Shown in pieces: positions 2,599 to 60,319 of a stretch of 64,000 nucleotides of DNA. Source of the DNA: Eledone cirrhosa (lineage: Eukaryota); assembly GCA_964016885.1 (NCBI GenBank), contig OZ024758.1:32426001-32490000 (forward strand), written 5' to 3'. The stretch's first letter is position 1. Each line of letters opens with the position of its first letter. The notes beneath the pieces were generated by a model. It saw only the letters and a list, made by a program, of their open reading frames with translations, was not told the DNA's origin and made no database searches. The translations under genes were made by a program, and so were the position numbers.

Positions 2599-2860
2599 AT
2601 ATATTCATATATATATAAATAGATATTCATATATATATATTCATATATTTCGTTTCTGAATTTGTTTCGCAAGATTCTTTATCTGAAAACGTGTGTTGAA
2701 AGCGATATTGTTATACTTTGGGAGGGTCATGTTGCCAATAAGAAACACACGCACCAGTTGCTTTCACTCCAATTTATTATAAATTAAATTTATAAATTTA
2801 AGAATTTATAAATTTCCGGTTGGTTGGTTGGTTCCACAACCGGACGGTTGTTCATATATT

Positions 2861-2903
2861 GTCAAAGTTCTTTCGTCACACTTTCTGTGACCTCTTCAGT
2901 GAC
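2861..2903 (-). ncRNA. Type I hammerhead ribozyme (minimal, Penelope-type)
   Basis: Minus strand GTCA-CTGAAGA-G-GTCACA(GAAAG)TGTGAC-GAAA-GAAC-TT-TGAC: both core boxes and stems I, II and short III present. Confidence 0.75.
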
Positions 2904-2962
2904 TGGGGATTCTTTTCTTTGTTTTGTGCCTCTCCTTTATTCTGTTCTGAAAAGAATCCCCA

Positions 2963-3005
2963 GTCACTGAAGAGGTCCCAGAATGTGTGACGAAAGAACT
3001 TTGAC
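2963..3005 (+). ncRNA. Type I hammerhead ribozyme (second arm copy)
   Basis: GTCA-CTGAAGA-G-GTCCCA(GAATG)TGTGAC-GAAA-GAACTT-TGAC; one stem II mismatch. Confidence 0.7.
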
Positions 3006-3150
3006 AATATATGAACAACCGTCCGGTTGTGGAACCAACCAACTGGAAATTTATAAATTTAATTTATAATAAATTGGAGTGAAAGCAACTGGTGCGTGTG
3101 TTTCTTATTGGCAACATGACCCTCCCAAAGAATAACAATATCGGTTTCGA

Positions 3151-5240
3151 CCCTGAAGTTCATCCAGTTTGACATAGATAGTTACTACGCCTCTATCTCC
3201 CCCATACTCTTAAATAAGGCACTCATATTAGCTAAATCTAACACTAGCCTCACTAAAAAAAGAAATAGACATAGTTCTAGCGGCACGTAGAACCATTATC
3301 CAGTTCGAAGTCTCCCACTGGACCAGAACCAACCGTCCTGATAACTTTGATATCACGATGGGGTCCAGCAACTCAGCGCAAGCAACTTACCTGGTTGGAA
3401 TATACCTTTTCCATAAGCTTAGGGACGAGATACCGGCCCTACAAGGAGGTGTATATAGGGACGACACCCTGTTTACCGTTAGGAGCCATAGCCCTCGTAG
3501 GATAGAGAACCTTAACAAGCATATACACAGGGTCTTCAAGTCATATGGCCTATCCGTAACTATAGACCTCAACCACCAGGTTGTCAACTTCCTGGACGTG
3601 ACCCTGGAGATGAGTACGGGCCTATACAAGCCATACCATAAGCCTGGAGAGAGCCTTTCTTATATTAATTATGCCTCCAACCACCCTAAGCAGACTCAAC
3701 TCCATAGTCTAGAGCATCTCACATAGAATCTCGAGGCTCTCCGCCAATGAGAATATCTTCAACCAAGCGGCAGATTACTACAATAGGGCCTTGATAAGCG
3801 CTGGCTTTAACCAAGGAATTTCCTACATCACTAATGCTAGCTCCAGAAACCACCCCCCTCATAAAACGAACGTTATAGTAAGCCATACCTATAACCGATC
3901 ACGCGGCGACTTCGTAGGAGTCGGATAAAATAGAATAGATAATCGCACTAAGGAACACGGCTGCAATGTTAATTACACTGGCGATGGTATAGGTAACTTA
4001 CCACACAATAAAGATCACGACCCCGGCGACAGTGACCACTGTAGCCTACTCGAATGATTCCCCTACTATAAAATCAACAAAGGCGACGGCCTACTACCAA
4101 CGCCTTCCAACCAACATCTTCCTGTACATGGAAGAGGTAGGAAGAGTGCACCCGAGCATAAAGTGAAAGGGGCACATAACGGGCTACAGTGCATTAACAT
4201 GCATAAGAATGGTCACCTTGATGGAACCACCCGTAGCAAACGCACACGGACACGTAATCGCCACCGTAACGTCCTATGGTTCCATCCCCCCTTCTCTCGA
4301 AGTGTGGCCTCCAACATACCCCGGATATTCTTCGAAGCCTTAGAGAAGAACTTCCCGCCCAACCATAGGTATAGATAAATCCTTAATAGGAACAATATAA
4401 AAATATCCTTCTCTACTACTCCTAACCTAGCAGACATCATAGGAACAACTAATCACAGTAAGATCACCAAGACACAGCACCTTAGCATATACGCACCTAC
4501 ACCTGACAATAACTATATCGGCCTTAATGACTCCCTAGCAGCATCCAATAGTGCTGGCAACAGCCTCTACAGACGCAACCAGAATAACTGCCACATGACT
4601 GGGGAACATGCAGGACATGATGTGCGGAATAATAATGGTACCACCCCGCGCACAGTGGGTTATAATGGTGCTAACGACAGGTGCGGGAGCGTAGATAACA
4701 ACGTAGATAGCAATAATGATAGCCTTACCGTGGGAATTAGAAGGGACCGTGACAGGGGACGCTGTCCCCTTAGAGGATACTGCTTGACTGATAGGGTTAT
4801 ATATAGGTGCACAGATACTTTGAGCTTGTTAATTGTAGGGTATCAATATGAGTTAATAACTCTGTATTTTATTTGTATTCGGCTCCCTAACTAGGTGAGC
4901 TTATAAGTTGAGTGTAATAAGGCTATTATTTCTAGCATACCCACTCACACCACATATAGCGTGCAACCCACGAGTTGTATTATTTATTCCTGTGAGTTGT
5001 TGTTAGATGTGTTTTGTTTCATTTGATCTTATCTCTCGCTGAGGAAAGCCTACGGATTATCTTTTACAAACACAATTTTCAGATTAAATCTCTAATCTGT
5101 CCGAGAGATGAAATGGTTATTGATACGGTCTGTATATAATTTTATATCCTACTGTATGTTTCAGGTTAAATATATAAAACATTTGTGGCATTCTCTACCC
5201 TCGTAATTTTAGACACAGAATTTATTGTTTATGTCTACAT
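3151..5240 (+). mobile_element. Degraded Penelope-like element (RT, linker, start of GIY-YIG, 3' tail)
   Basis: LKFIQFDIDSYYASI (RT motif A), TMGS, GVYRDD, VNFLDVTL, YINYASNHP, WFHPPFSRSVASNI, CPLRGYCLTDRVIY; frameshifts and stops; HHR remnant at 5031-5109. Confidence 0.85.
5031..5109 (+). ncRNA. Hammerhead remnant lacking the GAAA box
   Basis: Stem I ATCTCTCG/CGAGAGAT, CTGAGGA, stem III CAGATTA/TAATCTG and GUC site are intact; the 3' side of stem II and GAAA are missing. Confidence 0.65.
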
Positions 5241-5368
5241 ATATTATTATATATATATGGTAATTGTTCCAAATCTTAGTCAACATATTACAGGGATTGT
5301 TGCAGGTTTATTTTTTGTCCCCCAATCCTCCCAACAACCACAACTTTAGCAAAGGAGTTTGGGTTTAA

Positions 5369-5802
5369 CCCTTTAGCATTTACATAAGGATAAATATATA
5401 TCAAATTTATAAAAACCATAGAGCAAATATTTATTAAAATAACAGATTACAGTTTAAACAAAGAATCGCTGCTTTCACCCTTAAGGGATCTTCTGAAACA
5501 GGAGTTTCAGAAGATCCCATTAAGAGTGAAAGCAGCGATTCTTTTCTTACTTTTTAATCTGTTATTTTAATAAATATATATATATATATAATTGGTGGAA
5601 GGAATATAGTGAAAAATATTTTTACTATTGTATTTTCATGGTAAAAGCTTTATCTAACATAATAGTGAATCTAAGAGATTTTGATATTATTTATTCTGAG
5701 AACAATACCTTAACATCACTATGAATGTCTAGTTACGGCCGATTTGAACAGAATGGGGTGAGAGAATTTTGGCTGGATACAGCCAGTTTGAATGCTAAAG
5801 GG
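5369..5802. mobile_element. TTAA-flanked piggyBac-like MITE carrying a ~240-bp insertion
   Basis: TTAA-CCCTTTAGCATT...AATGCTAAAGGG-TTAA; body matches copies at ~18160-18354, 48570-49393 and ~54825-55040. Confidence 0.8.
5427..5577. repeat. Hairpin with HHR-like motif (copy 1; identical copy inside 6989-7228)
   Basis: Palindrome centred on AGGA (5500-5503); arms read CAGAAGA-TCCC..GGGT-GAAA-GCAGC; unfolded relative at ~20833-21090. Confidence 0.8.
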
Positions 5803-5878
5803 TTAAATTAAATATAATAAATATTTCATGTGTTCAAATGTATAAAATATTTGCTGTGGAAATGTTAGATATTGTCAT

Positions 5879-6218
5879 GGAGGCACATGGCTTAGTGGTT
5901 AGATCATTGGCCTTGCAATCGAAAGGTTGTGAGTTAAATTCTGAGACCGGGTGATGTGTTGTTTCCTTGAGCAAGACACTTTATTTCACATTGCTCCAGT
6001 TTACTCAGCTGTAGAAATGAGATGATAGGGACTGGGGTCCCTATCATTCCACTGCAAAGTGGTCGTGGAGATGCCATGGCAAAAAAGCACCCAGCACTCA
6101 CTGTGAATGAGGTAGGTGTTAGGAAGGGCATCCAGCTGTAGAAATCAAGCCAGAATCAGTTCCCGTCCCACCCTTGCAAGCAGGGAAAAGTGGACATAAA
6201 ATGATGATGATGATGATG
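5879..6218 (+). mobile_element. tRNA-derived CORE-like SINE (family A), full length
   Basis: GGAGGCACATGGCTTAGTGG head, B-box region, CORE-like block, tail ending in (GAT)n. Confidence 0.85.
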
Positions 6219-6849
6219 TCATACATAGTAGATATCATAGTAGATATTACAGACTTCCTGTGGATTATTACTGCACAAGGTATTATTATTGGTATTGCAT
6301 CAATAAGACATTAATGTGAAATTATAAGACAGAACATTTTTATCTAGCATTAGAAACTTTACAAAGTCACTTGAAGGTAAGTTAGTGGCAGAAAGCAGCC
6401 CTAAATGATATTCTTAGGTAAGAAACCTCAAAATTACAGACGAGAGAAAATGAGAAGTTGTGGTGTTCACATATTTACTACTTCCATTAACAGGAGGAGA
6501 GGCTCCAACTGACAATCAAAACCAGGAAGTAAATGCCATAGCTGAAAATTAATTGCTGTTCCATAGATATTAATAGATATTAATTTTATATATAGGATTG
6601 AAGTCAGATTTGAAAAGGAGAGAATATGGAATGTGATATTCCCTCTAATACTGACTTCTCACATTGACATAAGGGCACATATTTATAGCAAAGTATTTTG
6701 CCAATTCAATCAATTGCAACACATGTGTGATATTTTCATTTATCCAAAAGAACATCGAATGAAAATTAGGCAAAATATTTTGTCTAATGTTCAACTGATT
6801 CTAACATTCTAAGTATTTAAATACTGATTGTAACATAGGGAGAAGGCCA

Positions 6850-6880
<31 letters not shown>

Positions 6881-6882
<2 letters not shown>

Positions 6883-6921
6883 TACGAGCTGAGGATCCGC
6901 TAAGGTGAAACAATTGTGTAA
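6881..6921 (+). ncRNA. Hammerhead remnant in (TA)n
   Basis: ATTACGAG-CTGAGGA-TCC(GCTAA)GGT-GAAA-CAATTG-T-GTAA: palindromic stem III; cleavage nucleotide and first stem I bases apparently deleted. Confidence 0.6.
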
Positions 6922-6962
6922 CCACTTCTACATATATATATATATATATATATAATAAATGA

Positions 6963-7228
6963 GAAGACTAAAATCCGAAGAGGGCTCGATAAGGATAAAT
7001 ATATATCAAATTTATAAAAACCATAGAGCAAATATTTATTAAAATAACAGATTACAGTTTAAACAAAGAATCGCTGCTTTCACCCTTAAGGGATCTTCTG
7101 AAACAGGAGTTTCAGAAGATCCCATTAAGAGTGAAAGCAGCGATTCTTTTCTTACTTTTTAATCTGTTATTTTAATAAATATATATATATATATAATTGG
7201 TGGAAGGAATATAGTGAAAAATATTTTT
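6963..7228. repeat. Fold-back element in (TA)n (likely donor of the 5384-5623 duplicate)
   Basis: 6989-7228 reads identical to 5384-5623; its 5' part matches 20833-20905. Confidence 0.8.
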
Positions 7229-7327
7229 TTCATTTCATTACAAAAATATGTATTTTTCTTCAGCAGCGACATTACCTATATGTTTATTATATGTCAGCAT
7301 ATTATATGTTTTCATATTATATATGTA

Positions 7328-7517
7328 TATATACTACTAAAAGTCTGTGATTGCTTGCTTGTCTGTAATGTAATACAGCCAAAATACTAATGTAATACAG
7401 GGAAAATACTTTGAAAGGAAGTTGACCCTGAAAAGAGAATACAAATAGTAAAACAAGTTTCGCATAAATTGGAGCATGTGTTCCCGAGATATGGGGTTTC
7501 TGGGTACCTTCATAAAT

Positions 7518-7555
<38 letters not shown>

Positions 7556-7895
7556 GGAGAGAGAGAGAGAGAGGGAGGAAGAGATAGTGGTTGTGAGAGA
7601 GTAGATTCAAAGAGAGACATAAAGAGAGGGAGAGGAGACAGAGAAGGAGAATGGAAGAGAGAGAGAGAGAGAGAGAGCGATCTGGTGGTGGTGTTGTGTA
7701 AATATATATGTGTGTGTGTCTAGACCAGTGTATATAGATCACAGACATCCACATATATATACACATGTATACACACACGTATATATATATGGGCCTTCCA
7801 GTTTCATTTCACATTATATACATGTCTGTGTATATTTTAATTATTTAAAAATTATTTTTAAGTGAACATGACCCACCGGGTCACGGGTGGTCTGG
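7328..7895 (+). mobile_element. Possible non-autonomous Helitron-type element with internal (GA)n
   Basis: 5' TATACTACTAAAAG...TGTCTGT resembles the 22169 element; 3' GC hairpin GACCC-ACC-GGGTC followed by CTGG-T. Confidence 0.35.
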
Positions 7896-8353
7896 TATAT
7901 ATATATTTAGGGAGAGGTATAATCAATTATAAAAAGGGAGTATTTGACTAGTAACATCAGGAAGAATGAAAGGCAAAGATTCCCTTGACAAGATTTGAAA
8001 TCAGAATGTAAAAGTTCAAAACAAAATAATGTAGCATCTGCTTTACTAATTCTGCCAATCTTCTCCACAAAAAAAGAAAAGAAAAAAGAAAAAAAAACTG
8101 CAAAAAATATAACTAATTAATAAAAAAAACATTAGCAGAAGTGAAATACTGATTTCATTTAAAAAAAATTTATATTGGTTAAGTAATGAGACTGTAAAGA
8201 ATTTCAAAGAGATATTAATTATTATGCAATAGTCAACAACTATATATATGTATATAAATTTTGAGTATATGTTGGTGGTTGACCGACACCTCAGTATGCA
8301 GATTGGAGCACTCGACGTAGTACGCAGGTTGGTTTGTTTACTCCGGAGTAATG

Positions 8354-9168
8354 TAAAATAATTAAGTCAAATATGTAAAATTTGGCTTCGTTTATTATAA
8401 ATTATAGATATACTGTTATATATATATATAGATATACTGTTATATATATATATAGATATACTGTTATATATATATATAGATATACTGTTATATATATATA
8501 TAGATATACTGTTATATATATATATAGATATACTGTTATATATATATATAGATATACTGTTATATATATATATATAGATATACTGTTATATATATATATA
8601 GATATACTGTTATATATATATATAGATATACTGTTATATATATATATAGATATACTGTTATATATATATATAGATATACTGTTATATATATATATAGATA
8701 TACTGTTATATATATATATATAGATATACTGTTATATATATATATAGATATACTGTTATATATATATATAGATATACTGTTATATATATATATATAGATA
8801 TACTGTTATATATATATATAGATATACTGTTATATATATATATAGATATACTGTTATATATATATATAGATATACTGTTATATATATATATAGATATACT
8901 GTTATATATATATATAGATATACTGTTATATATATTTTGGTGACAGCCATCATTGGAAAGACAGATACACATGTTGTTGAAGTCTGTTTTACTCCATCAA
9001 TACATCGATATGTCCAGCTCCTAGTTGTGCTGTTATTCCTCTGAGGAACTGGAATCAGTTCCTCAGAGGTGACAGCCAATGATGGCTGTCACCGAAATAT
9101 ATATAGCTGTATATCTATAATTTATAATAAACTAAGCCAAATTTTACATATTTGACTTAATTATTTTA
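8354..9168. repeat. Fold-back element (arms 8354-8956 and 9076-9168) with HHR remnant and inner palindrome 9038-9069
   Basis: Arms are reverse complements apart from the tandem expansion; the right side has GGTGACAGCCA(ATGA)TGGCTGTCACC-GAAA-TATATATA. Confidence 0.8.
8407..8935. repeat. 24/26-bp minisatellite (GATATACTGT-TATA...), ~22 copies
   Basis: Directly visible tandem array. Confidence 0.95.
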
Positions 9169-10954
9169 TATATATATATATATATATTATATATGCATAT
9201 ATATATATGTGTGTATACTGTTTATATAACTATATATAGTGTATATAATATATATACATAGTAAATATGCAGATGATACATTGTATAATGTTGTTTATAT
9301 GTATATATGACTTTTTTGTAATATAAATTACTTTGAAATGGCTGAAATGCAATGTTCAAAATATACAATTAATAATAAAGAAAATAACAATTAAACCTGC
9401 AGTACAAACAAATAAGATAAACTGGGATTAATATACCCCCATCCTCAACTGGGATTAATGTACCCCTCTCCAAAAAAAACAAATAAAAAAACAATAAAAA
9501 ACAGTGCTGTAATGAAGTATCAAATGAAAATCGTGAGTTGAAACATGTATTAAAAGAACATTGTATTTCAATACTATGTATTGAAACGTCTGTGTTATGT
9601 GTAAGTCAGTCCTCCATTTTAATACATTTACAATATATTTTGAATTGAAGTTTTGTAGTATCCTGTAGGTAAGCTGCATTCTGGTTTTTGAGGTCATATT
9701 TTTGTGGAAAAAGATGTTACTTACACACAAGTGTATATGATATATACAATATAATTCATATACATACACAAACACACACATATATATATATATACACACA
9801 CACATATGTGTGTGTGTATATATATTGTATACAAAATGATTATGATTTTATATATATATATATACACACATATATCTATTTACATAAGTTAACCTCCCAT
9901 TGTCAATAGCCATGTTTGATTTATGTAATCAGAATCTCCTGATCTGTCTGTTATATCTCTGTGAGTACCAAATGTTCCCACTCCAAATAGCCACTTTATA
10001 AATATTGCAGAGTCCAAATCCTATTTGTATGTTCTTCAAATTTAAAGGCTTCTACATCAAATACAGTAAGGATGATTAATTTAGACATGATATTGGAAAT
10101 TTGGAATCCCAATCTCAGATACATGACCAATAATCGATCTATGAGTAATATGAGTTGAGTGTTATTGAAGGGTCAGAAGTCATCAACAGTGGAGATAAAG
10201 AAATCAGGCTTTTAATAGGAGGGTTGGCGATACAGATATTCTGTTTGTTTTTGTTTTGAGTGAAGTATTTGACAGTATGGCTTTACACAAAGAATATTTC
10301 ATCTCATCTGGATATTGAATTGATGAGTGAAAAATAATTTTGCTGCACTAGGATTAAAATAGGATTGGTTTTTAGTCCTCTAAATCAAAAGAGATTTCAG
10401 GAATTAGTGTAGTATCAACTGGAAGGTAAAAGTGGTGGGATTGGAACATATAGTGATTAAATTAAAGACACAAAACAAATTTTTAAAACAGTAGGGGAAA
10501 AAAATAGGACACAAGTAGCAAGCAACATGGAACTCAAAAAATAGGACACAAGTAACAGGAAACATGGAACTCAAAAAGAACATAGAAAAGAAAGAATCAA
10601 ATAAATAATATATATGGAAATGCAGAAAAGTTATGTGAATAAAGACAGATTTGCTCACCAGATGATTATCAATCAACTAACTGAAATTTATCCACTAAAA
10701 CATTACAAATATTGTTTTGGATTTTTTTAGCTCTTTTGTGTATGTGTGTGTGATGTCTGAATGAATATCCTCCACCTCTTGGTCCTGGCTGACAGGATGG
10801 AGAATATATTGCCCCAGAGGATGGCAAGGGAGATGTGCTGGAATAACCACTCCACCTCACACCTGCAGGCAGCCAACTCTGCTTTGATAGCAGCAGGCAA
10901 ATGAAATGAAGGTAATGCAATGTTTTGGTTTTGTGAATCAAGTAAATAATAATA

Positions 10955-11136
10955 ATAATTGTTTCTACTTTAGGCACAAGGCCAGCAAATACTCAGTACA
11001 TTACTGGTATTTTATTTTATCGACCCCGTAAAGATGAAAGGCAAAGTTAACCTCGGCAGGATTTGAACTCAGAATGGCAAGGGCCGTAACTCTATGCTAC
11101 AAAGCATGGTGTGTAACCCTCTACCGATACTGCCAA
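10955..11136 (-). mobile_element. tRNA-derived SINE (family B)
   Basis: Reverse complement of the 55805 copy; GCCTTTCATC..GGGGTCGATAAAATAAA central block. Confidence 0.8.
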
Positions 11137-11154
11137 TAATAATAATAATAATAT

Positions 11155-11890
11155 CATCATTAGTTTATGTGTTTTTCCATGCTTGCATATAGATTAGATA
11201 GGTTTTCTACAACACAACACCTTACCATTTGTTGCAGTTCTTTGACATATCCTTTGTGAATTTCAGCTTCTTGAGATCAGCTGTCACTATTTCTTTTTAT
11301 GCTATCCATGTTCTTTCTCTTCCATAGGTTCTTTCCACTTGGATCATTTGGCACTTATTTAACATTTGTCATCCTCCACAATGCCAATAGAAGCCCCTTA
11401 TTCTCTCCAGTACTTCTGATTCCTTTTATTCCTAGTTTTTCTATCAGTTCACTTCTGTTTCATTGTTTAGGCACTCTAATAAGCTTCCCTAATTTCTTTC
11501 CAGCCTTTGTAAAGCCTCTAAATACAATGTCCATGTTTTGATACAATGCAGCATTGTACTTCATATATAAGCATCATACACTCTATCCTTTAGTCAGAGA
11601 GAGAATCCTTATGTTCTTATGGTGGTAACAATGCTTTCAAAACACTCACTCTACAGCTAACAAGGCCACAAAAGTAACAAAAGCTATTAAGTAATTCTTA
11701 GGACCTTTCCAAGCATTTGAAAGAATTTCTTCCATGAGTGCTAATACTGCTAACTACACCTGTGCAATTCCTACGTATGAAGTCCTTCTTTTCTGTTAAC
11801 CTGCTGAGATCCCATGACACTTCTTGTGCATCCATAGTCTAAATTAAGTATAGAATTCCTGTTAATTCCCCTTTTTTGGCACACTGTGCA
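11155..11890 (-). mobile_element. Highly decayed RTE LINE 3' portion
   Basis: Minus strand LWMHKKCHGI matches the Cys/His segment of the 13779-15460 RTE; RTE-like tail near 11160. Confidence 0.5.
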
Positions 11891-11999
11891 GAGTCACTTC
11901 TCAAATGCTATCAATAATAAATTGTTTTCTCTGTATGCTGGACTAAATATCAACTTTGTGTTTCTAAAGCAGATGACATATTTATGTAAGTAAATATGC

Positions 12000-12000
<1 letters not shown>

Positions 12001-12030
<30 letters not shown>

Positions 12031-12050
12031 TGTATGTGTGGGTGTGTATG

Positions 12051-12117
<67 letters not shown>

Positions 12118-12124
12118 ATGTATG
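12001..12124. repeat. (TATG)n/(TG)n compound microsatellite
   Basis: Directly visible. Confidence 0.95.
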
Positions 12125-13143
12125 TTTGTTGCAATGACTTTGTATGTATGTATGTTGGCATGTTGGGTGACTTTGGACATCCTGCAGGACTAAAAAAAAA
12201 AACCTGTCAAAGGCCAAAGGAACTCTTAAGAGTTAATAGCCATCCAAAATCACCGGGAGAGATGACCCCTTAGCCTTTATCAAGGCAGAATTCTAGGAGA
12301 AGGAAAACTCTGATATAACACCTGCAACCCTGATGGTATCCAATGATGTTGACTTGTTGTTCTTTTTGGTAAATATCATCTTGGTTAAGAGAGTGGGACT
12401 GACTTTGTGCAGTGCCTTTGCTCACTATAAAAGCTTCATGGCACAGGCATTGCTTTATATCTGGAGATCTCTCTGCACTTGTCATCACATGGTACCAAGG
12501 GCCCAGCACTATGTGTCATTAATTGTTACAAGTGTAGTGTTTGTACCAGAGTTTTCAAGTCGCTGGCTGGACTAAAAAGTCACACTCGTTCAGCGCATTG
12601 GTAGGGGTTCTCCTACATGGATATGAAATAGTGGCCGTACTCGAAAACGAGTTGGCAGCCACCATGTATGTATGTATGTGTGTGTGTGTGTGTATGTATG
12701 TATGTGTGTGTGTGTATGTATGTATGTGTGTGTGTGTATTGATGGTTGCAAAACATACACATTCATCCAGAAGTTTCAAAATCAGCTAAATGAACGAACA
12801 TCTACATGTTAGGAAAGACGCATGATGAAGATAATGACACACACACACACATACATGAAATATAAGTATTGTATCAATGTACAATCTAACTTATTAATAA
12901 TCTTGAATAAATAAATGATGTAGTTTGAAGATTTTAATGCTGTTTTATATTAGGTTAAGGTTTATTGTTAGTAATTGAGAGCAAAGGTTTCAGCCGTTCA
13001 TAAACAATATCACCCCAACCTGAAGGGTGTCATGGATAAATCAAGTGGAGCCAATTAAGACTTTCTATTAGACATTTTGGAATTGTTATTCTAATATAAT
13101 ATAATTCAGAATATCTTTCAGATTGAGACACCATTTGACGACT

Positions 13144-13190
<47 letters not shown>

Positions 13191-13253
13191 GTCCCAAGGC
13201 TCTGATACCATCAACACTATACACACAGAGCTGGCATATCTAAGAACTGACTA

Positions 13254-13309
13254 ACTGCCTGATGAGTTCATAGCCATTCAATGGCTATCATCGAAATATA
13301 TATAGCAGT
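13254..13309 (+). ncRNA. Type I hammerhead ribozyme with palindromic stem III
   Basis: ACTGC-CTGATGA-GTTCATAGCCAT(TCA)ATGGCTATCATC-GAAA-TATATA-TA^GCAGT: complete core, 5-bp stem I; lies in a ~165-bp insert flanked by (TA)n. Confidence 0.85.
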
Positions 13310-13350
13310 AAATAAAGGATTATGAGTTCATGCAATTGACTTATGTTTCG

Positions 13351-13384
<34 letters not shown>

Positions 13385-13385
<1 letters not shown>

Positions 13386-13535
13386 ATCTAAGGCGGGTAA
13401 AATTCCCGAGATCCATGGACGAGTTCTCTCCAGCGGTCTCTGTCCCTCATTATCGCTGCCATGTCCTGTATCTCCAAGAGACCAGTGTCTGTCCTTAGGG
13501 CATCAACATACGTTAACCTTGGTCTTCCTCTTCTA
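13385..13535 (-). mobile_element. Short 3' fragment of a second RTE-clade LINE
   Basis: Minus translation [19 protein letters not shown]...MRDRDRWRELV. Confidence 0.7.
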
Positions 13536-13724
13536 GTGTAAATATATATATGTGTGTGTGTGTAAATATAAATATATATATATGTAAATATATATATATA
13601 TATATGTATGTAAATATATATATATATATATATATGTATGTAAATATATATATATATATATATTTATTAAAATATATATATATATTTATTAAAATATATA
13701 TGTATATATATATATATATGTATG

Positions 13725-13778
<54 letters not shown>

Positions 13779-13780
<2 letters not shown>

Positions 13781-15460: not shown

Positions 15461-15499
15461 ACTTGTTTCTTCAGTATATTTAGTCGTTTTGGAAGCCTC

Positions 15500-20729: not shown

Positions 20730-20760
<31 letters not shown>

Positions 20761-20832
20761 CCAGTCAACTGGATGTTTATATATATATATATATAAACAT
20801 CCATATATATATATATAGTAATAATAAAAATT

Positions 20833-21090
20833 TGAAGACTAAAATCCAAAGAGGGCTCGATAAGGATAAATATATATCAAATATATAAGAACCGTTGAGC
20901 AAATATTTCTTTGCCAGGGAACGTTTCCACGAACCAAAGTATCGTCTTCCTGTCTTCCTCCGGTTGCAACGTTTTTTGAAATATCCACTTCTGCATTTAC
21001 AGATTGACTTTGTTAGTTTCAGAAGATCTCGTTAAGGGTGAAAGCAGCAATTCTTTGCTTAAACTTTAATCTGTTATTTTAATAAATATA
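20833..21090. repeat. Unfolded relative of the 5427-5577 hairpin element, in (TA)n
   Basis: Shares GAAGACTAAAATCC..GAGGGCTCGATAAGG and GTTTCAGAAGATC..TAAGGGTGAAAGCAGC..TTCTT blocks. Confidence 0.7.
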
Positions 21091-21172: not shown

Positions 21173-21205
<33 letters not shown>

Positions 21206-27642: not shown

Positions 27643-27673
<31 letters not shown>

Positions 27674-27680
<7 letters not shown>

Positions 27681-27775
27681 GGGCAGGAACTAAGTATCAA
27701 TATAACATCATTATGTTTATTCGTGTGAATAAATATAATGATGTTATATTGATACTTAGTTCCTGCCGTTTATTA
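27674..27775. repeat. Near-perfect hairpin (~49-bp arms, GTGT loop) in (AAT)n
   Basis: Direct reverse-complement match. Confidence 0.9.
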
Positions 27776-27940
27776 TATTATTATTATTATTATTATTAAC
27801 ACTCTGCTTCTTAAAGATACCGACTATGGTGAAATACCAAACGTAGAATTCCACTTCAGCAGCCAAACCCAAATATTAGCATTGCATGCTCAAAATCGTG
27901 AATCATCAGTAACTAAACATTATACATCAATAACCTGAAT

Positions 27941-28308: not shown

Positions 28309-28316
<8 letters not shown>

Positions 28317-28510
28317 AACAAAAGATGGTTAAAAGAGTTCCATGTATTTTATTATGCGCATTTCAAAAACAAATATCATCATGCAATAATATTTGTGTTT
28401 TTATCAGATAAAACAGGAAGACATGATATGAAGGTTAAAGACACTTGTGGATAGTGCAGTTTTAAATCAACATACATGGAACTCTTTTAACCATCTTTTG
28501 TTCTTATATA
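28309..28510. repeat. Inverted repeat (~38-bp arms, ~125-bp spacer) at (TA)n
   Basis: TATATAAGAACAAAAGATGGTTAAAAGAGTTCCATGTA and its reverse complement. Confidence 0.85.
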
Positions 28511-48135: not shown

Positions 48136-48164
48136 TCTGTAGAACAGTCACAAAAAGCAAAGTA

Positions 48165-48489: not shown

Positions 48490-48569
48490 TATTTGTTATC
48501 TATAGTTTGACTGAATCAATTTGCTAAAATATTAATAGCAATATCACACCTGTAGTAGAGATTATTTAA

Positions 48570-50778: not shown

Positions 50779-51094
50779 TTTTATAATCATCTTCTCCAAA
50801 CCGGTGCTGATCTTTACAGACTTCTCCTGTTGATAGAGAATCAATGTTGAATCGTGGTGGAGTTTCAAATATTTTTTCCACCTCATCATGCAGTGTGGAG
50901 ATATGGCCCATGCAAGCACCCCGGTCCATTGCAGAAATATGTGAGATTAGTGGTTGTAATTCCACTTCTTCCTGATTTACTGGGTTCTCCTTAACAGAAC
51001 CTACTCCTGGAGCTTCATTGAGGGCTGTGTCAGACAGAGTTGACTCGGGATGGCTACCGAGTCCAACTTTGAGGCAGCCATCCTCCATTTCATC
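50779..51094 (-). CDS. SLC4A2: SLC4 anion exchanger (AE2-like), first coding exon found
   Basis: ctgttgcag|GAT GAA ATG...AAA A|gtaag; ends RFGEDDYK, similar to AE2 GEEDFEY; in-frame ATG at 51088 may be the start. Confidence 0.88.
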
Positions 51095-53790
51095 CTGCAA
51101 CAGAGACAAAAATAAATATATGAACACATGTTGATAATAAGTTATTGATTTTAATTCAATTTAATTTACTTCTTGATTATTTAGAATATTAGATCATCAA
51201 TTATCTCTTTCAACCTTACTTTTATTGCAAACCAAAGTTTTTTTGTAATATTTAGAGCAGAGAAAAAGTAAAAAAATTTACTACGCATACATGTGATGAA
51301 TGGCATATGCCAAACATTCTTAATGAATTGAAATGTTTCTCTTAGAGAAAGAAAACATTAGCCTGGTGGCATTCATTAATGACTCACATATAAATAAAAA
51401 AAATAATAAATTCAATAGATTAAGAATTTTTAAAAATTAAAGGAAAATCTGATCTTTGTTAGTGGGGATGGTGATAGCAATGAACATGTTTCAATCTTAT
51501 TAGCCCTTGTCAGTGAGACATAGACAACATGCACAGAGTTGAGCAATAAATATAGGTTTTTGCATATAGAAAAAAAAAAGGTTATGAATAACTTGTCAAG
51601 TAGCAATTTGCATAGTAAAAAAATCACCCTGAGACATAATATAAGGTTTAAAAAAGATGAATGATGTGATTTTTCAGAGTGAGAGTAAATGAATATGCAT
51701 GTGTGTATATATAAATATATGTGTGTGTGCGCGTGTGTGTATGTGTGTATGTCTATGTATATATATCAAAAGTGGAAGTATACATTCAAATCTCAACAAA
51801 TACTTTTGTATATATATATATATATATATATATGTCTGTGTGTGCATATAATTATGTACGTATGTCTGTATGTGTATGCATGCATAACATACAGAGACAC
51901 AAATACATTCCTAAATTTATTTTCAACTGTATTTTCAGCTTGTTATTTGAAAAACGTTTTTGTCTAAGGCAACATTTAACATGCATCATATATATGTATG
52001 GGGAGAGAGATTCTGACTGGATACAATGGCAGCAGCAGCAGCATTGTAATAATTCAACTCAAGATGCATAACATTTATAAACATTCATGTAAAAATTTAA
52101 AGGAAATAAATGAATGCAAAAAAACAAACAAAAAAACTGGAAGGAAAAAATGTCAATTCATTGAAATGATATCAGAGAATTGAGAAATGGAGACATGACA
52201 AGAGTATAAATGGCAAACAGAGATTTTTATGACATAAACAGTATAATATAGGCTTCTTCATTGAAATTCTTAATCTGGTATAAATTAAGGGAAATATGAC
52301 TTGGTGCATTATTATCAATTTATCAAAACTGTTTTGGTTTCTGATATTCAAAGAAGATGAAATTGTAGACAGTGAAATGAAGCCAACATATTTCAATGAG
52401 AAGATAATGTTTAATTAGAGAAAATATCATTCAATACAAAGATATTCCTTCAAACTTGATAGAAACATCATGGAGACATTAGGATTATTTCTAAAACCAA
52501 GGCTAAGAGAAATAAATCAAATGTTAAGTCTGTAAAACAAATCAATACAAGGCAATATTGATCGTAATATAATTAATTGGATTATCAGACAGGAGAGGAA
52601 GGTTTGAATTTATAATCTGGTGAAAATCTGTTGCTGAGTCAAGACAAAGAATGATGTAGCTGATATTTCACTAATTTTTTCTGCAGGTTTAAAACCCATA
52701 ACATTTTTTCAATAAAAATAATTATATTATCATCATCATCACTTAATGTCCGCTTTCCCTACTGATAAGGGTTGGATGGGTCTACATAGACCAAGTCAAT
52801 ACTGAAGTGGGGCCACTGACATCCCAGACAAGCTCGGGGAGGTCTGTATCCGGCTTACATACTGTCATTATCGAGTGCAGAGGTGAAGTTGTCGTATCTT
52901 TTGACACAACCTGAAAGATGATCCTAACCCCTCATTTGGCAAGCTTTCTATGGCTTGATGCCCTTCCTATCTCTAACCACTTTACAGCATGTATTGGGTG
53001 CATTTATCATATAGATCACCAACACTAGAGAGGTTGTTGTGTCTTTAACACAGCTGAAGGGTCCTCTCAACCCTTTTAGGCATGGTTTCTACAGTGAAGT
53101 GCTCTTCCTGTTGCCAACCATCCATACAGAGAATACTGAGTGCATTTTCATGGCACCATCACAACCATAACCCTAACCCAGCTGTATATAATCATACAAA
53201 CTGACATCCACAAATATTTAGTCTCACTGTAAAGCTAGGCTTAGGATGAGGGTTGAGCCAGCATATCTATATTCCATTCTGTATTGTAATCAAATAATTA
53301 TTGTCTGTCAATTTTGTACCATTATGTGACTCTGTACATATTTCTTGACATTTTAATAACTAACCTTCAGCTACAACCATTAACAGTTTGAAAAGGGAGG
53401 TAAGTGAATATTGATACATTCTTAAATAAGCTGATGAAAAATTTGTCATAGATTTACCTCCACAAAAGATGCTATATTCCAAGAGGCTATATTTTTTAAA
53501 TGACCATATAATCATGTGGAAACTTGTACAATACTTGTCTGAATATAAAGTTTTATTCTTTTTATAACTTTTCTAAATTTTTATGAAATTATTAATCATA
53601 TTGACCATTTGTAAAAATTGTAAATAAAATGAGATGATTCTTTTTGATACACTGTATATGTTTATTTAACATATGGATATGATACTGCATCATCATCATC
53701 ATTTTACGCCCGCTTTTCCCTGCTTGCAAGGGTGGGACTGCATATACATATTTATTCATAACCCTTGCTCTGTTGGTACTGTAATTATTA

Positions 53791-54370
53791 AAAATAATTG
53801 TTTCTACTTTTGGCACAAGGCCAGCAAATACCCAGTACATTACTGGTACTTTATTTTATCGACTCCGTATGGATGAAAGGCAAAGTTATCCTCAGCGGGA
53901 TTTGAACTCAGACTGTAAAGGGACGTAACTATGCTGGAAAGCATGTCCGACCCTCTACCGATACTGCCAATCCACTGCCCAAAAAATAATTGTTTCTACT
54001 TTTGGCACAAGGCCAGCAATTACCCAGTACATTACTGGTACTTTATTTTATCGACCCCGTATGGATGAAAGGCAAAGTTATCCTCGGCGGGATTTGAACT
54101 CAGGCTGTAAAGGGACGTAACTATGCTGGAAAGCATGTCCGACCCTCTACTGATACTGCCAATCCACTGCCCAAAAAATAATTGTTTCTACTTTTGGCAC
54201 AAGGCCAGCAATTACCCAGTACATTACTGGTACTTTATTTTATCGACCCCGTATGGATGAAAGGCAAAGTTATCCTCGGCGGGATTTGAACTCAGACTGT
54301 AAAGGGACGTAACTATGCTGGAAAGCATGTCCGACCCTCTACTGATACTGCCAATCCACTGCCAAAAAAA
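53791..54370 (-). repeat. Three tandem 192-bp copies of family B SINE
   Basis: Period of 192 bp, few substitutions; a diverged fourth SINE follows to ~54580. Confidence 0.93.
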
Positions 54371-55804
54371 TAATGATTTCTAATTTAGGCACAATGACAA
54401 CAGATTTTGAGGGAAGGGCAAAGTTGATAACATCAACCCCAGTACTTTACTGGTATTTTATTTTATTGACTCCAGAAGGATGAAAGGCAAAGTTGACCTT
54501 GGAATATGAATGTTGAATGTAAAGAGCCATAAGAAACATTGCTGACCATTGCCTGATGTTCTACCGACTCTACTACCACTGTATAGTTCTTGAAAATTAT
54601 AAAAATATGTTTAATATGGATTGCTGAAAAAGAAATATAGTAATGGAGGTAAACGTGTTTCGAGCATAAATGAAGATAAGAAGGACTCAAATGTAGTCTG
54701 AATGATTAGCAACACTTTTATAAAAAGGGTTTTATCAATAATTATAAAATTGAGTAGATTAAAGGTATTTGTGAAGCCCGCATAGACACCATATTTTATT
54801 GTTGAATAAACCTGCATCTTTTTAATCCCAATTAGCATTTAAATTGGCCATATCTGGCCAAAATTTTCTCACCTCTTTCTGTTCAAACTAGTTGTAACCA
54901 GCCGCTCATACTGATGTTCTCAACATAAATAATATCAAAATCTCATAGATTCGATATTATGTAAGATAATTATATGAGGTAAAACCTTTACTGTGAAAAT
55001 ATAATAGTAAATATAGGGTAATGCAAATGGTAATGGGTTACAGAAGCTGAAACAGATTTGAATAGTTTCATTTAGGTGTATCCTACAGCAGGCATGTGCA
55101 GCCTTTGTCAAGCAGTGAGTCACATAGGATGTGTAAGGCAGGCCACACTACTGAAGAATTCAAGGCAATTTTGAAGTTAGGCGTGCCTTTCAGAAAGCCA
55201 AACAGGCCACATGCTGCTCGTGGGCTGCAGTTTGCCCATGACTGTTCTACAGAGAATATATAAAATCCAAGTAAGAATAGACATGATAGTATAGAATGTA
55301 CTTGTAGTTTGTCAATTTTAATTTTTTTGCTGAAACTACCAGCCAATTGACACTTGGAGAAGGTACTTGATTCACTTCTGTCTCTTGAATATTACCAATT
55401 GCATTATAGAGCTTCTGTTGCAGGGATTGGAAGAGCTTAATTATATATACAGTGGAACCTCAGTTCACAAATATCTTTCATCATGAACAATTTTTCTGAA
55501 CATAAAACATCTTGGGTGATGAACAATATCTCAAGTAATGAACACACAAGCCAGCAACAACAGTTGGCAACAAGCTTGGAGCATCAGTGGGAAGTGCTAC
55601 TTGTTGTGTAGTTAGTTACTGTGGTGATATCTGTCTTTCACACACAGTCTCTCTCTCTCACTGTATTTCGCTCTCAATATTTCATATGGGAAAAATAATT
55701 TCGGTTTACAAACATTTTTGGTGACAAATGGCCACCAGGAAGGAATTAAGTTGATGAACCACGTTTCCACTGCATATGTATATCATTATTTATCACCAAT
55801 AAAG

Positions 55805-55988
55805 GGCGGTGGATTGGCAGTATCGGTAGAGGGTCGGACGCCATGCTTTCCAGCATAGTTACGTCCCTTTACGATCTGAGTTCAAATCCCGCCGAGGTTG
55901 ACTTTGCCTTTCATCCTTACGGGGTCGATAAAATAAAGTACCAGTAATGCACTGGGTAAGTGCTGGCCTTGTGCCTAAAGTAGAAACA
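55805..55988 (+). mobile_element. Full-length family B tRNA-derived SINE with 20-bp TSD
   Basis: A box TGGCAGTATCGG, B box GAGTTCAAATCC; TSD ATTATTTATCACCAATAAAG at 55785-55804 and 55989-56008. Confidence 0.92.
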
Positions 55989-56907
55989 ATTATTTATCAC
56001 CAATAAAGACTAAGAAATAAATTAAAAACATGATCATACTAACATATCAGTCAATAGAAAATTAGTGTATAGAAAATTAGTGTAGTAAAAACCAAAGCAC
56101 AAATATATAGAACCTATTGGTGGGGTTTAAGCCTCAAAAACCCCTTAGTGACAGAATGCTTGCATTATGGTAGATTCTTCAGAAACAAAAGCAAGAACTA
56201 AAATACAATCTGATATACTTCATAATTGTTTCTACATTTGGCACAAGGCCAGCAATTATCCAGTGTATTACTGGTACTTTATTTTATCGACCCCGTAAGG
56301 ATGAAAGGCAAAGTTAACCTCGAATGTTAGTATAAAATGGTTAAAGTTGTGTTTTCTTTTATTAATTAGGATTGTCAGACTGATATTAATTATGACTGTC
56401 AAGTGAATTTAATGAGTTAAGATAGTAATTAGAAATGATTTTGTTAGGTAAATTTGTCAACAAAATCTCATTTTACTTGTAATAGGAATAATATATTAAT
56501 TTCTATAACTTTTATTTACAAAAAAAGAAGTTTATAGAATGTATAGTAAAAAGTAACAAACACCAACAACAACAAAAGCTTAAGAAGAAAAAAATGTCAG
56601 TAACTTTGATAAAATACCTAATTGATATTTTTGATCTATATCATCAGGGAAAAGAAAATTTAATTATTTCTTTTTTGTTGCATTCATAGAATTAGAAATT
56701 TGTGGTAAACAAATTGTGATGTGAAGTAATTACTTGCATTGAGATTGGTAACAAAATACATTGATTTGATTTTACTAGAATTGAATTGGCTTAATCTGTT
56801 AGCAGATGTGAAGAAAACTGTTGTTTTGAGGAGAAAAGACACAATCAACAAGGTTGATATTCTTAACTTATGAAAATTATTTAATATTGAGAGTAAGGGG
56901 GAAGAAC

Positions 56908-56946
<39 letters not shown>

Positions 56947-57261
56947 GTGTTAGGAAAGGCATCCAGCTGTAGAAATCAAGCCAGAATCAGTTCTGTATGA
57001 GCAAGACATGGTCATCTGACCTGGCATCGCCAACAACAGGACAACCCGTCTAACCCATGCTAGCATGGAGGAATGGACGTAAAACGGTGATGATGATGAT
57101 GATGATATATAAATTATATATACATATAAAATATATACATGTGTATATGGGATAACAAGTTATGTACAGCCAACCATGTTACTCTTAAATCTTTCACTAT
57201 ATATATCCGTCTAACCCAAGCTAGCATGGAAGATGGACGTTAAACGATGATGACGATGATG

Positions 57262-57637
57262 ATATATACATATAAAGTTGTATTCCTGTCTGTTTGTTCA
57301 CAAACTATTCCTATAGTTTTGGATATAGACCCCCATAACCATATATATTCTGAAACTACATTATAACCATATATATTCTGAAACCACGATATGATGCCTA
57401 TTCACAAAAGTTTTGAATTGATATTTTGAAAAAATTATTTACAAGAAACAAAATAAGAATAAAATTTAATAATGTAATTTTGATTAGATATATTACAAAA
57501 AATAATGTTTTCCAATTTTTCATGCATTACATTTTACATTGAGTAATATTGAAATGCAGAGTTTTTCTCCATAAAATCATCATTTTCTTACAAAAAAAAA
57601 TGTGTGAAATGCAGCAAGGCATGGGTAATTCGGCTAG
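57262..57637 (+). mobile_element. Possible decayed non-autonomous Helitron
   Basis: 5' TATAAAGTTG..CTGTCTGTTTG; 3' GCAAGGCATGGGTAATTCGG-CTAG|T resembles the 22986 end. Confidence 0.45.
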
Positions 57638-57638
57638 T

Positions 57639-57710
<72 letters not shown>

Positions 57711-57783
57711 GTGTGTAAATGAAGTAATTCCGTCGGAAAGGTCCAGGAAAAAAAGAGTGCTCTATGTAAGTTACAGAGCTTAT

Positions 57784-57956
57784 TAGTTATGTAATAAATA
57801 ACATAAGATAATTATTTAATTTACCAGTGTCTTTATTGAAAAATCCACTGTCAATAAAGACTCCAGGATTTTTTCATTCTGATGAATGAAAGCAATTTGG
57901 GTTGCTTTTAAGAAACCACTGGTAAATGAAATAATTATCTTATGTTGTTTATTACA

Positions 57957-57962
<6 letters not shown>
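57784..57962. repeat. Fold-back element (arms 57784-57829 and 57917-57962) ending in (TA)n
   Basis: Reverse-complement arms; the right arm overlaps the HHR. Confidence 0.85.
57872..57931 (+). ncRNA. Type I hammerhead ribozyme
   Basis: TTTCATT-CTGATGA-ATGAAAGCAA(TTTGGG)TTGCTTTTAA-GAAA-CCACTGG-TA^AATGAAA: 7-bp stem I, GUA site; A.A mismatch at the base of stem II. Confidence 0.85.
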
Positions 57963-58000
<38 letters not shown>

Positions 58001-58005
<5 letters not shown>

Positions 58006-59954
58006 ATGATATTAATAAATGGAAACTATATTTATAAAACCATATTTATTCTATTATAGAGAGCGTACCAAAACTTTGGTATGCTCTCATCAGATAAAAT
58101 ACACAATTTGTTTTATAAATATTGACATGGAGATCTTAATGGTTCAAGTTTTTCCTGGATAATGAAAGGAAAGAGGGGAAAGATAGGAAAAGTCAAATAT
58201 TTCAAATTATTAAGATGAGGTTGAGGTATAGGGCTGAAAAAAAACACGTTAATTTTAGATGCTAGGTAGATTTAAGTAATTATTAGGATATATGTTTCCT
58301 TGAGCAAGACACTTTATTTCACATTGCTCCAGTTTACTCATCTGTAGAAATGAGATGATATGGACTGTGGTCCCTACCATTCCACTGTAAAGTGGATGTG
58401 GAGGTGCCATGGAAAAAAGCACCTGGCACTCACTGTAAATGAGGTTGGTGTTAGGAAGGGCATCCAGCTGTAGAAATCAAGCCAGAATTAGTTGCTGTCC
58501 CACCCTTGCAAGTAGGGAAAAGAGGGCATAAAAATGATGATGATATGTATGTGTAGGAAGAAGAAAGAGAAAGAAAGAAAAGCTTGTATTTACGTGAATT
58601 TAAAAAGAATTAACAGTTTGTAGGAATGGTGGAATATGATTCCAGAATTTAAAAAATTATTTAGCTAAATTATGAGCTATATTATTATATATATAATCAA
58701 TTAGATTATATGAAGAATTATGGTTGTAAGTACATTTTATCTTATTATATTGCAACAGGTTGTAAGTATATAAATATCTAAATAGATTAATAAGTGTGCA
58801 AGTATAAGTATTATTGGTGATTTTATAGAAATAAACCACAATTATTAATTGTTTACATTTCTAATATGAGTTACGAAGGATGTTGATTTTAGATTTTACA
58901 TAAAAAATTTAAGAAAAAGACATAGTTCAAGTTGTAAGGGAAGAACAATTTGTAGATTCAAATATTTTCATCCAACATTGAAAATATTTTCAGAACATTA
59001 TTAATTTAGCAAAATTATATAATTTATCATACAAGTTATTATGTCTATGTTTGCTCAATTGTAAAGGAAAAGATAACTCCAATATTATTTGCTAACCATT
59101 AAATTTGATGAATGATTTTCTTAGAAATCATGTAGAGAAAATTATATATTATTTTGTGTGAGATTATAAGGTATTTTATATTACATGTTTTTCAAGTATG
59201 GGAATTTCAATTATATATTATCTACGTCGAAAGATGTGTGAAAAGTTTGAAGATTAAAGAGAGAAAAATGTATTATTAGATAAGTCGAGAGTGCATTTAG
59301 AAGAACTATCGTAAAGAGGATATCTTTCAGAATGTCAATTAAAAAGTATCAATCTAAAAAAATATATATATAAATCTAAAAAATAGATTAAGAAGTGTAT
59401 CATTAGGAAAATAATATCAATTGGTAAAAATACTAAATTTAAGAAGGAAGATCATTTAAAAAATTTAAATTTTTAAAAGAAAACCTCAGTAAATAACAGG
59501 ATCATTTTAATGATGTTTAAGATGTAGTCAAGTGTAATGAATATTATAGATTAAAAATACTTCGGAAAGTGGATTTTTGGCGATGTCTGCAAGAACTGAA
59601 TAATTTGGTTTTTAAATTAATAGAGTTTTGACAGTTAATTATATAAAAAAAAAAAAATCTACCTACCGTCTAAAAATAACGTTTTTTTTTTTGGCACTAT
59701 ACCTCAACCACATTTGCATATTAATCTTAATAATTTGAAATATTTGACTTTTCCTCTCTTTCCCCTCTTTTCTTTTACTATCCAGGAAAAACTTGAACCG
59801 TTAAGATCTCCTTCCTGGATATGTCAATATTTATAAAACAAACTTTGAATTTTATCTGATGAGAGCGTACCAAAGCTTTGGTACCCTTGAAATATATATA
59901 ATAGAATAAATATGGTTTTATAAATATAGTTTTCATTTATTAATATCATTGATA
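58001..59954 (+). mobile_element. Decayed AT-rich Penelope-like element with ~270-bp inverted termini and a SINE insertion (~58293-58545)
   Basis: 58001-58273 is the reverse complement of ~59655-59954; both arms carry HHR sequence; (TA)n on both sides; interior ORF not readable. Confidence 0.7.
59850..59906 (+). ncRNA. Type I hammerhead ribozyme with palindromic stem III
   Basis: TTTTAT-CTGATGA-GAGCGTACCAA(AGCT)TTGGTACCCTT-GAAA-TATATA-TA^ATAGAA; the opposite arm copy (58049-58099, minus) lacks GAAA. Confidence 0.85.
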
Positions 59955-60042
59955 TTATACGCCAGAAAACCTGTCAAGTGCTTCGAATCAGTTATAAACA
60001 TTTATATTTGTTGAATTACCAACAAATTAAATATCCCTTTTG

Positions 60043-60091
<49 letters not shown>

Positions 60092-60188
60092 AGGGAGTGT
60101 AACTTGGAGTTACTGTAGGTTCACCCGGGTGAGCACTCAGTGTTTAGGTTCACTTCAGTGTCGAGGTGTAGAGCTAGACAGAGTGTAT

Positions 60189-60319
60189 TATAGTGAAATA
60201 AGATAACAAGGACGATTGGTTACTGCTTCATTACGTTTATTGGTTGTGAAACGCGCGTCACCAACCAATAAACGTAATGAAGAAGTAACCGATCATCCTT
60301 GTTATCTTATTTCACTATA
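60189..60319. repeat. Hairpin (58-bp arms) whose loop is an HHR stem III/cleavage motif
   Basis: Arms 60189-60246 and 60262-60319; loop contains GAAACGCGCGTC. Confidence 0.85.

Follow-up and report, generated by a model that had tools for sequence, protein, structure and literature searches.

Head-to-head ends of Penelope-like elements with one long and one short tail in the genome of Eledone cirrhosa

Inverted, 5'-truncated insertions of Penelope-like elements (PLEs) with a tail at one end are described in passages of PMC8557442 and PMC3846280, and the completion of PLE integration, with its inverted ends and one-sided tail, is stated as open both in PMC11167929 and in a passage of PMC8557442. 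In vitro, a PLE protein that is predicted to act as a dimer cuts the two target strands and extends each of them, initiates at two internal RNA positions that define the tail and does not require ribozyme cleavage (PMC11167929). The window analyzed here is a stretch of 64,000 nucleotides (nt) from Eledone cirrhosa (assembly GCA_964016885.1, 3.0 Gb; contig OZ024758.1, positions 32,426,001 to 32,490,000 of the forward strand), in which a reading made from the letters alone, hereafter the sequence-only reading, lists six inverted repeats associated with hammerhead ribozymes. Each of these hairpins is a pair of PLE 3' ends joined head-to-head, one with a long tail and the other with a short tail. 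The head-to-head architecture is already known, and it is the counts reported here that bear on the integration mechanism; the hairpins are a clue to how PLEs integrate and not a new mobile class.

Tail pairing and the reach of the two arms

The elements are grouped into six families, labelled A to F, one for each listed hairpin (corrected spans 2650-3151, 5386-5577, 8261-9171, 57712-57962, 57995-60047 and 60090-60319), with real genomic copies as family references. Positions are numbered from the predicted hammerhead cut, with +1 as the first base after it and negative numbers upstream. The pooled genome-wide set consists of 128 head-to-head elements with 256 arm ends, taken from families F and B and from samples drawn with DNA queries for families A to E. 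For family F, two tail-only patterns have 142 and 194 exact matches in the genome, and scoring 100 listed matches of the former and the first 30 of the latter yields 115 elements, 54 of them head-to-head. The tail-only pattern of family B has 39,443 exact matches, and 67 elements are taken from the first listed positions. The DNA-query samples contribute 30, 24, 24, 24 and 24 scored elements for families A to E, each of 40; they are biased, as the anchor arm must carry its entire tail, and the pile-ups of arm ends in A, C, D and E depend on them. A hairpin-shaped query favours short loops and is left out of the junction distribution, for which the tail-only patterns are used. Repeat hits of one pair, L073 (the same locus as L072) and the duplicated loci L141 and L163 are removed, and six apparent inverted arms made of microsatellite only (L117, L120, L123, L103, L315 and L357) are scored as solo copies.

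A long tail is paired with a short one in 125 of the 128 elements. In family F this holds for 53/54 elements where solo copies predict 50% (P=3e-15), and in family B for 22/22. The sequence-only reading places a tail on both sides, pointing outwards; the orientation is right, but the two tails are unequal, and the extra 55-100 nt on one arm had been overlooked. The arm that reaches further 5' is more often the short-tail arm, in 34 elements against 13 in family F (6 ties) and in 15 against 4 in family B. Since a fold-back copy cannot exceed the strand from which it is copied, snap-back of the target-primed first strand cannot work in either case, and the simple snap-back put forward by the sequence-only reading is not supported. 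Junctions in family F (n=54) comprise 25 overlaps, 6 blunt joins and 23 with inserts, and 7/53 elements are inversions with almost no duplicated sequence.

The position of the arm ends bears on the proposal, also made by the sequence-only reading, that arms stop about 0-60 nt from the cleavage site where a self-cleaved or structured RNA end halts complementary DNA (cDNA) synthesis. Ends within 60 nt are indeed common (115/256), which reflects short cDNAs; 11/256 lie within 5 nt, and 121/128 elements extend beyond the cut by more than 10 nt on its upstream side. The 10 nt on either side of the cut hold 9/108 arm ends of family F, against 8.7 expected outside the pile-up (P=0.85), and 1/44 of family B, which has 15/44 at -55 to -35. 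In each family the arm ends pile up at one site located 45-170 nt upstream of the cut. The family F pile-up at -120 to -90 holds 38/108 paired arms (P=3e-6) and 24/61 solo copies, so that paired and solo copies have it in common, and the densest 15-nt windows are -50 to -36 in B, -171 to -157 in C, -124 to -110 in E and -111 to -97 in A. Because the ends pile up after the reverse transcriptase (RT) has crossed the fold, and the +1 side, where the enzyme enters the fold and a structure-induced stop is expected, is not enriched, such a stop is unsupported. These counts argue that ribozyme cleavage does not set the insertion ends and that the RNA template is mostly uncleaved, as it is in vitro (PMC11167929).

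The two arms of an element come from one source or subfamily. An indel marker is concordant between arms in 27/27 and 8/8 callable pairs (a further 14 and 5 are not callable), minority bases are common to both arms in 19/2054 columns against 0.14% in permutations (six of them from one locus), and family C arms diverge by 4.1% within an element and by 9.8% between elements. Arm-specific bases at +54 to +64 of family C prove to be an alignment artefact.

Recurrent junctions and their independent origin

In family B, the pile-up falls on A(-46), the first base of helix I at the 5' edge of the ribozyme. This base lies within TTAGTT, which we take to be initiator-like from its consensus. Both arms reach -46, with at most 6 nt between them, at 296 loci; near-symmetric loci number 214 in family C, 76 in family E and 9 in family D. 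A fold point at the ribozyme, as claimed by the sequence-only reading, is recurrent at its 5' edge in family B; the junctions avoid the cut site. Bases at the centre are tallied for 50 listed near-symmetric loci each in families B (the first 50, by hand), C and E. In family B, the base next to A(-46) on its 5' side, a T in the genomic sequence, is a G on one or both arms in 31 of these 50 and on both in 13, and one-base centres are G or C in 15/16. In family C, a few loci have an extra G and 33/50 listed loci have a common self-complementary centre, and a CC(A/T)GG centre is found in 22/50 listed loci of family E.

Passages of PMC4859970 read untemplated 5' G residues in L1 and SVA insertions as a copied cap, and a passage of PMC8557442 places the Penelope start site in the pseudo-long terminal repeat (pLTR). 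Judged by its base pattern, the pile-up would correspond to the capped 5' end of an RNA initiated in the pLTR. A splice junction at -46 of family B, a possible reading, is not adopted, since no upstream donor giving the observed bases before this position is found in 1056 nt of family B. In two family B copies, L288 and L313, different upstream donor-like sites (near -892 and near -860) connect to a single acceptor near -142, and an intron-like stretch that most long copies of the family retain is missing; these copies look reverse-transcribed from spliced RNA.

The sequence-only reading raises the possibility of a ribozyme-defined non-autonomous class and offers, as a check, whether identical fold junctions recur at many loci or are unique. 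Recur they do, at the 296, 214 and 76 loci of families B, C and E, but with independent origins apart from one duplicated whole hairpin. Among 35 symmetric family B loci, the single G belongs to the long arm in 9 and to the short arm in 6, and three-base centres divide 4 and 4; loci with the same junction have no more variants in common than other loci do (0.226 versus 0.221); and 20 family C loci with an identical centre are spread over several subfamilies. Identical junctions therefore arise repeatedly and independently, not by descent from one master, and loci with the same junction do not form a lineage. Pairs with matching ends and gap account for 4/128 elements. The pattern of master-copy descent, a common junction with common mutations, is absent from the 35 family B and 20 family C loci and appears in one exception: L187 (43.33 Mb) and L196 (41.97 Mb) of family C, which lie 1.36 Mb apart on one contig, have the same complex junction and are about 97% alike between unrelated flanks. 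This junction occurs twice in the genome, and the pair may represent a remobilised or DNA-copied hairpin.

Identical outer terminal inverted repeats, the mark of miniature inverted-repeat transposable elements (MITEs), are not seen, because a long tail faces a short one in the 125/128 elements counted above. Nor is the retrozyme arrangement of head-to-tail units, each with a full hammerhead, as the units here are head-to-head. The objects are ordinary PLE insertions, and the MITE look-alikes are PLE-derived and most likely made by retrotransposition, as the sequence-only reading supposed.

Families and features of the window

All six families have a type I hammerhead motif, with its core, helices and NUH triplet, and behind it a tail that can end at either of two positions. 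The first motif scan recovers it in families A and E only, and the remaining families are added through family comparison; Rfam matches a hammerhead in none of the six. The core of the predicted family B ribozyme, CAGAAGA, carries A where the conserved U4 is expected, with helix III complete. This U4A hammerhead lies at 5503-5553 and 7108-7158 in the window and is fixed across a very abundant family. In family F the hammerhead combines a long loop II with a helix I of 3 bp. Long copies of families A, B and F run upstream into GIY-YIG-type frames, which identifies three or more of the families as truncated ends of autonomous-type PLEs. A Pfam GIY-YIG match above the cut-off is obtained for a family A copy (L138, E=3e-6; one of four proteins scanned), and frames with a YIG motif are recognized by eye, without a Pfam match, in families B (L307) and F (L042); in families C, D and E no GIY-YIG-type frame is seen within 1.5 kb. 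The L307 and L042 translations contain a CxCX5C linker that fits the Hydra definition in a passage of PMC8557442, and with insertion into (TA)n this gives families B and F the features of the Hydra clade. A CX4CxxC linker in L138 and in a related frame at window 1-712 fits the Neptune pattern CX2-5CxxC of the same source, as far as its passages go. Only RT-like fragments are found, in L042 and at window 3200-3900. Three features of endonuclease-bearing (EN+) PLEs are present: GIY-YIG, a hammerhead near the 3' end, and a tail with an inverted 5'-truncated copy (125/128). Flanking (TA)n, which the sequence-only reading also reports, is found at one or both ends of 32/34 family F and 15/17 family B elements, as scored with an imperfect end regular expression.

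The head-to-head elements of the window are as follows.

2650..2948, minus strand: family A long-tail arm, -84 to +198; hammerhead core at 2899, predicted cut CUU^ at 2865
2948..3151, plus strand: family A second arm, -54 to +153; core at 2967, predicted cut at 3001
5386..5577, no single strand: family B hairpin, junction 5499-5503 (-45/-46)
6952..7182, no single strand: fuller family B hairpin; long arm 6952-7104 (minus), short arm 7108-7182 (plus)
8261..9057, minus strand: family C long-tail arm, +156 to -166; internal deletion at 8956
9058..9171, plus strand: family C second part; short self-copied patch, then short-tail arm (-41 to +66)
20817..21089, no single strand: family B inversion missed by the sequence-only reading; long arm +21 to +116 (minus), short arm -154 to +29 (plus)
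57712..57840, minus strand: family D long-tail arm, most of the hammerhead deleted
57841..57962, plus strand: family D short-tail arm, -84 to +38; complete hammerhead
57995..59651, minus strand: family E short-tail arm, reaching about -1350; later insertion at 58296-58543
59655..60047, plus strand: family E long-tail arm, from -242; hammerhead core at 59856, predicted cut at 59900
60090..60246, minus strand: family F long-tail arm, +161 to +3
60246..60319, plus strand: family F short-tail arm, -14 to +60; hammerhead 3' half only

All six listed places contain inverted repeats with outward tails, and their arms are 90-97% identical across 46-278 aligned nt. Every one is asymmetric, with the extra 55-100 nt of tail on one arm, and of the six junctions, only the one at 60246 comes within 5 nt of a cleavage site, and there for just one of its arms. 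The fold points given by the sequence-only reading need several corrections. The fold at 5499, just past the core, stands. The one at 2917 moves to 2948 (-84/-54), the 31-nt 'spacer' beyond 2917 being further long-arm sequence. At 8956, the supposed fold in stem II is an internal deletion, and the family C junction lies at 9057-9065 (-166/-41). The fold at 57829 in stem III is better explained by a deletion at a CAC microhomology than by the head-to-head junction, which lies at about 57840 (-77/-85 after the internal deletion; BLAST alone gives -19/-84). Near 60262, a fold 2-3 nt from the cut is correct for one arm (+3), but the junction is at 60246, the other arm ends at -14 and the predicted cut GUC^ is at 60259/60260. 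The family E junction is at 59651/59655 (about -1350/-242).

The family B hairpin at 5386 is not a separate insertion, because the 238 nt of 5386-5623, which include flanking sequence, are identical to 6991-7228; the copy lands inside another repeat 1.6 kb away. The junction of the fuller hairpin at 6952-7182 is the 5' edge of hammerhead helix I, with GG preceding A(-46), and the inversion at 20817-21089 has nearly no sequence duplicated between its arms. Within the family C long arm, 8405-8935 holds 22 tandem units of the loop III/cut-site region, each made up only of the palindromic loop III, the cut site and about 10 nt of tail; the array probably arose by (TA)n slippage.

Several neighbouring features are related to these families. 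A PLE 3' end at 2-1140, a relative of family A, has the CX4CxxC linker, a GIY-YIG-like frame and a hammerhead-like motif near 975-1010. Its sequence and that of family A have in common the motif AA(A/G)ATGGCG, near the family A pile-up, which is presumably YY1-like. A degenerate PLE RT/EN-like frame at 3200-4810 adjoins the interrupted short arm of the family A element. Hammerhead-like fragments lie at 6881-6930, akin to a flank of L188, and at 13254-13313, akin to family C. Two more short inverted repeats, at 27650-27798 and 28313-28509, lie between stretches of (TAA)n or (TA)n and may be head-to-head ends of other families, and no convincing hammerhead is found in either. Outside the window, L409 has a family C arm that switches into a family F tail, which suggests a nested insertion or a template switch between families. 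A long frame at 61330-63700 presumably, judged by eye, resembles the RT of a CR1/L2-type long interspersed nuclear element.

Formation of the hairpins and comparison with known systems

The reading preferred here, with a probability of roughly 0.6, is that each hairpin forms in a single insertion by twin priming at the two PLE start sites, followed by joining of the cDNA ends. In this model the two strands of a (TA)n target would be nicked by the GIY-YIG endonuclease of the element and would then serve as primers for reverse transcription of uncleaved element RNA; one would start at the distal site and the other at the proximal site, and the template would be a single RNA or two RNAs of common origin. 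Synthesis of each cDNA would proceed in the direction of the capped 5' end of the pLTR-initiated RNA, in many cases as far as that end, and the 3' ends of the two cDNAs would then be fused by end-joining. With centres of 0-1 nt there is no loop, which disfavours snap-back, and together with a G on both arms such centres suit the joining of two complete cDNA ends. Double priming is further favoured by the in vivo constraints of strict tail pairing, of either arm being the longer and of a cap-like G on both arms. More tentatively, and just short of an even chance, twin priming with one fixed start site per strand may be the normal route of PLE integration; it would explain the one-sided tail and the inverted pLTR, replace antisense self-priming and produce non-mobile palindromes that mimic MITEs, with rare remobilisation of a whole hairpin.

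Several points weigh against twin priming. The capped start site is deduced from base patterns, the extra G is strong in family B, occasional in C and E and indistinct in F, A and D, and the sites at B -46 and E -120 resemble 3' splice acceptors; a passage of PMC4209133 has a D. virilis intron ending at helix I. The family F pile-up sits in a T-run and could be a microhomology hotspot. Arm concordance could stem from subfamilies active at different times or from arm conversion, and in the hairpin-query sample the indel marker is discordant in 2/21 callable pairs (L002 and L019), so two RNAs may sometimes serve as templates. Later deletions, seen in window elements C and D, blur junctions, and together with brief fold-back patches at some of them (9058-9064; L187 and L197) they add scatter. 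In vitro, the start site is the same for both strands, which leaves strict pairing without a biochemical explanation (PMC11167929). Finally, (TA)n at the ends masks target-site duplications.

It is unlikely, though the most serious of the alternatives, that the hairpins are self-primed or fold-back cDNAs, possibly off-target or from antisense RNA, whose tail is later clipped by the endonuclease on either strand. Self-priming on an antisense template is proposed for palindromic PLE junctions in a passage of PMC3846280, a passage of PMC8557442 reads the tail as endonuclease resolution, arm concordance follows directly, and the self-copied patches just mentioned demonstrate that cDNA ends do briefly fold back. 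It is at odds, however, with centres of zero or one base, with the G added to both arms (13/50 listed), with non-duplicated inversions (7/53 in family F; 20817-21089) and with the two discordant pairs, and it must invoke either-strand clipping wherever the short-tail arm reaches further 5'. A still less probable history has insertions begin as complete symmetric palindromes, with later deletions of the unstable inverted repeats scattering the junctions. Deletions bounded by microhomology do occur inside the arms of window elements C and D and of several loci, and complete symmetric units exist in hundreds; yet solo copies match in both scatter and pile-up, one arm frequently remains intact, and tail pairing and the extra G are left unexplained, which makes decay more an addition than an alternative to twin priming.

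The combination favoured by the sequence-only reading, in which a self-cleaved or structured ribozyme end stops the cDNA and the hairpins are a mobile non-autonomous class, is very improbable, and in the samples taken here its cleavage-site half is refuted. A junction 3 nt from the cut on one arm (60246), the fold at the ribozyme 5' edge in family B, the recurrence of identical junctions and the L187/L196 hairpin, present twice with unrelated flanks, speak for it. The ends within 5 nt are few (11/256), nearly all elements pass more than 10 nt beyond the cut (121/128), the centre base of family B sits on either arm with no excess of common variants, family C junctions occur in several subfamilies, and even the L187/L196 junction is found only twice in the genome. 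Artefacts of assembly or library fold-back are next to negligible. No listed contig piece bridges the window junctions in 2640-5700, an absence that proves nothing; reads on this stretch are swamped by other copies. Against an artefact, the two arms are asymmetric, diverge by 3-10% and stop at positions fixed for the family, and opposite-strand joints (-110/-4, -104/+10, -92/+91, -90/+14 and others) occur in contigs of runs X1 and X2, possibly the assembly's own sample (15/35 joints shown), with one such joint in raw reads of runs X8 and X9 (9 and 3 reads, one start each).

The hairpin counts can be put to the test in the existing in vitro PLE system. For annotation, recurrent identical junctions are here no evidence of a mobile family, and the units could be mis-called as MITEs; family B alone has 39,443 exact tail matches. 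Strict tail pairing, a cap-like G and in vivo twin priming are not found for PLEs in the literature searched, supplements and many journals being outside its scope (PMC11167929 Fig. S2 may bear on the matter), and the passages of PMC13282606, PMC12910113 and PMC5680766 add nothing on the PLE integration mechanism.

Compared with the inverted PLE insertions in those passages of PMC8557442 and PMC3846280, the elements are alike in their head-to-head pLTRs, palindromic junctions, tail at one end, (TA)n targets and pLTR hammerhead. They differ in that many are 130-500 nt long without an open reading frame and have tail extensions of 55-100 nt in place of 30-40, and strict long/short pairing, 5'-end pile-ups and the extra G are not described in those passages. 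The Poseidon PAc protein studied in vitro likewise uses two internal starts that define the tail, extends both strands and copies an uncleaved template, whereas joining of two cDNAs and strand-specific start use are not treated in PMC11167929, and the families here carry Hydra-like and Neptune-like linkers. In L1 twin priming and two-cDNA insertions, according to passages of PMC11702581, both DNA ends are also reverse-transcribed and end-joined with microhomology or inserts, and the family F inversions and 20817-21089 resemble those products. The second L1 primer, however, anneals at variable internal sites and gives an inversion with little duplication, while the second start is fixed here and both arms often copy the same sequence. 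MITEs have a similar short, non-coding, inverted-repeat appearance, TA context and hundreds of near-identical units, but here the outer ends are unequal, the centre of symmetry is the junction and identical units are formed independently. Animal non-LTR retrozymes (passages of 10.64898/2026.07.22.740005) are also non-coding derivatives of PLE pLTRs with type I hammerheads; they form head-to-tail tandem arrays, whereas the E. cirrhosa elements are single head-to-head pairs.

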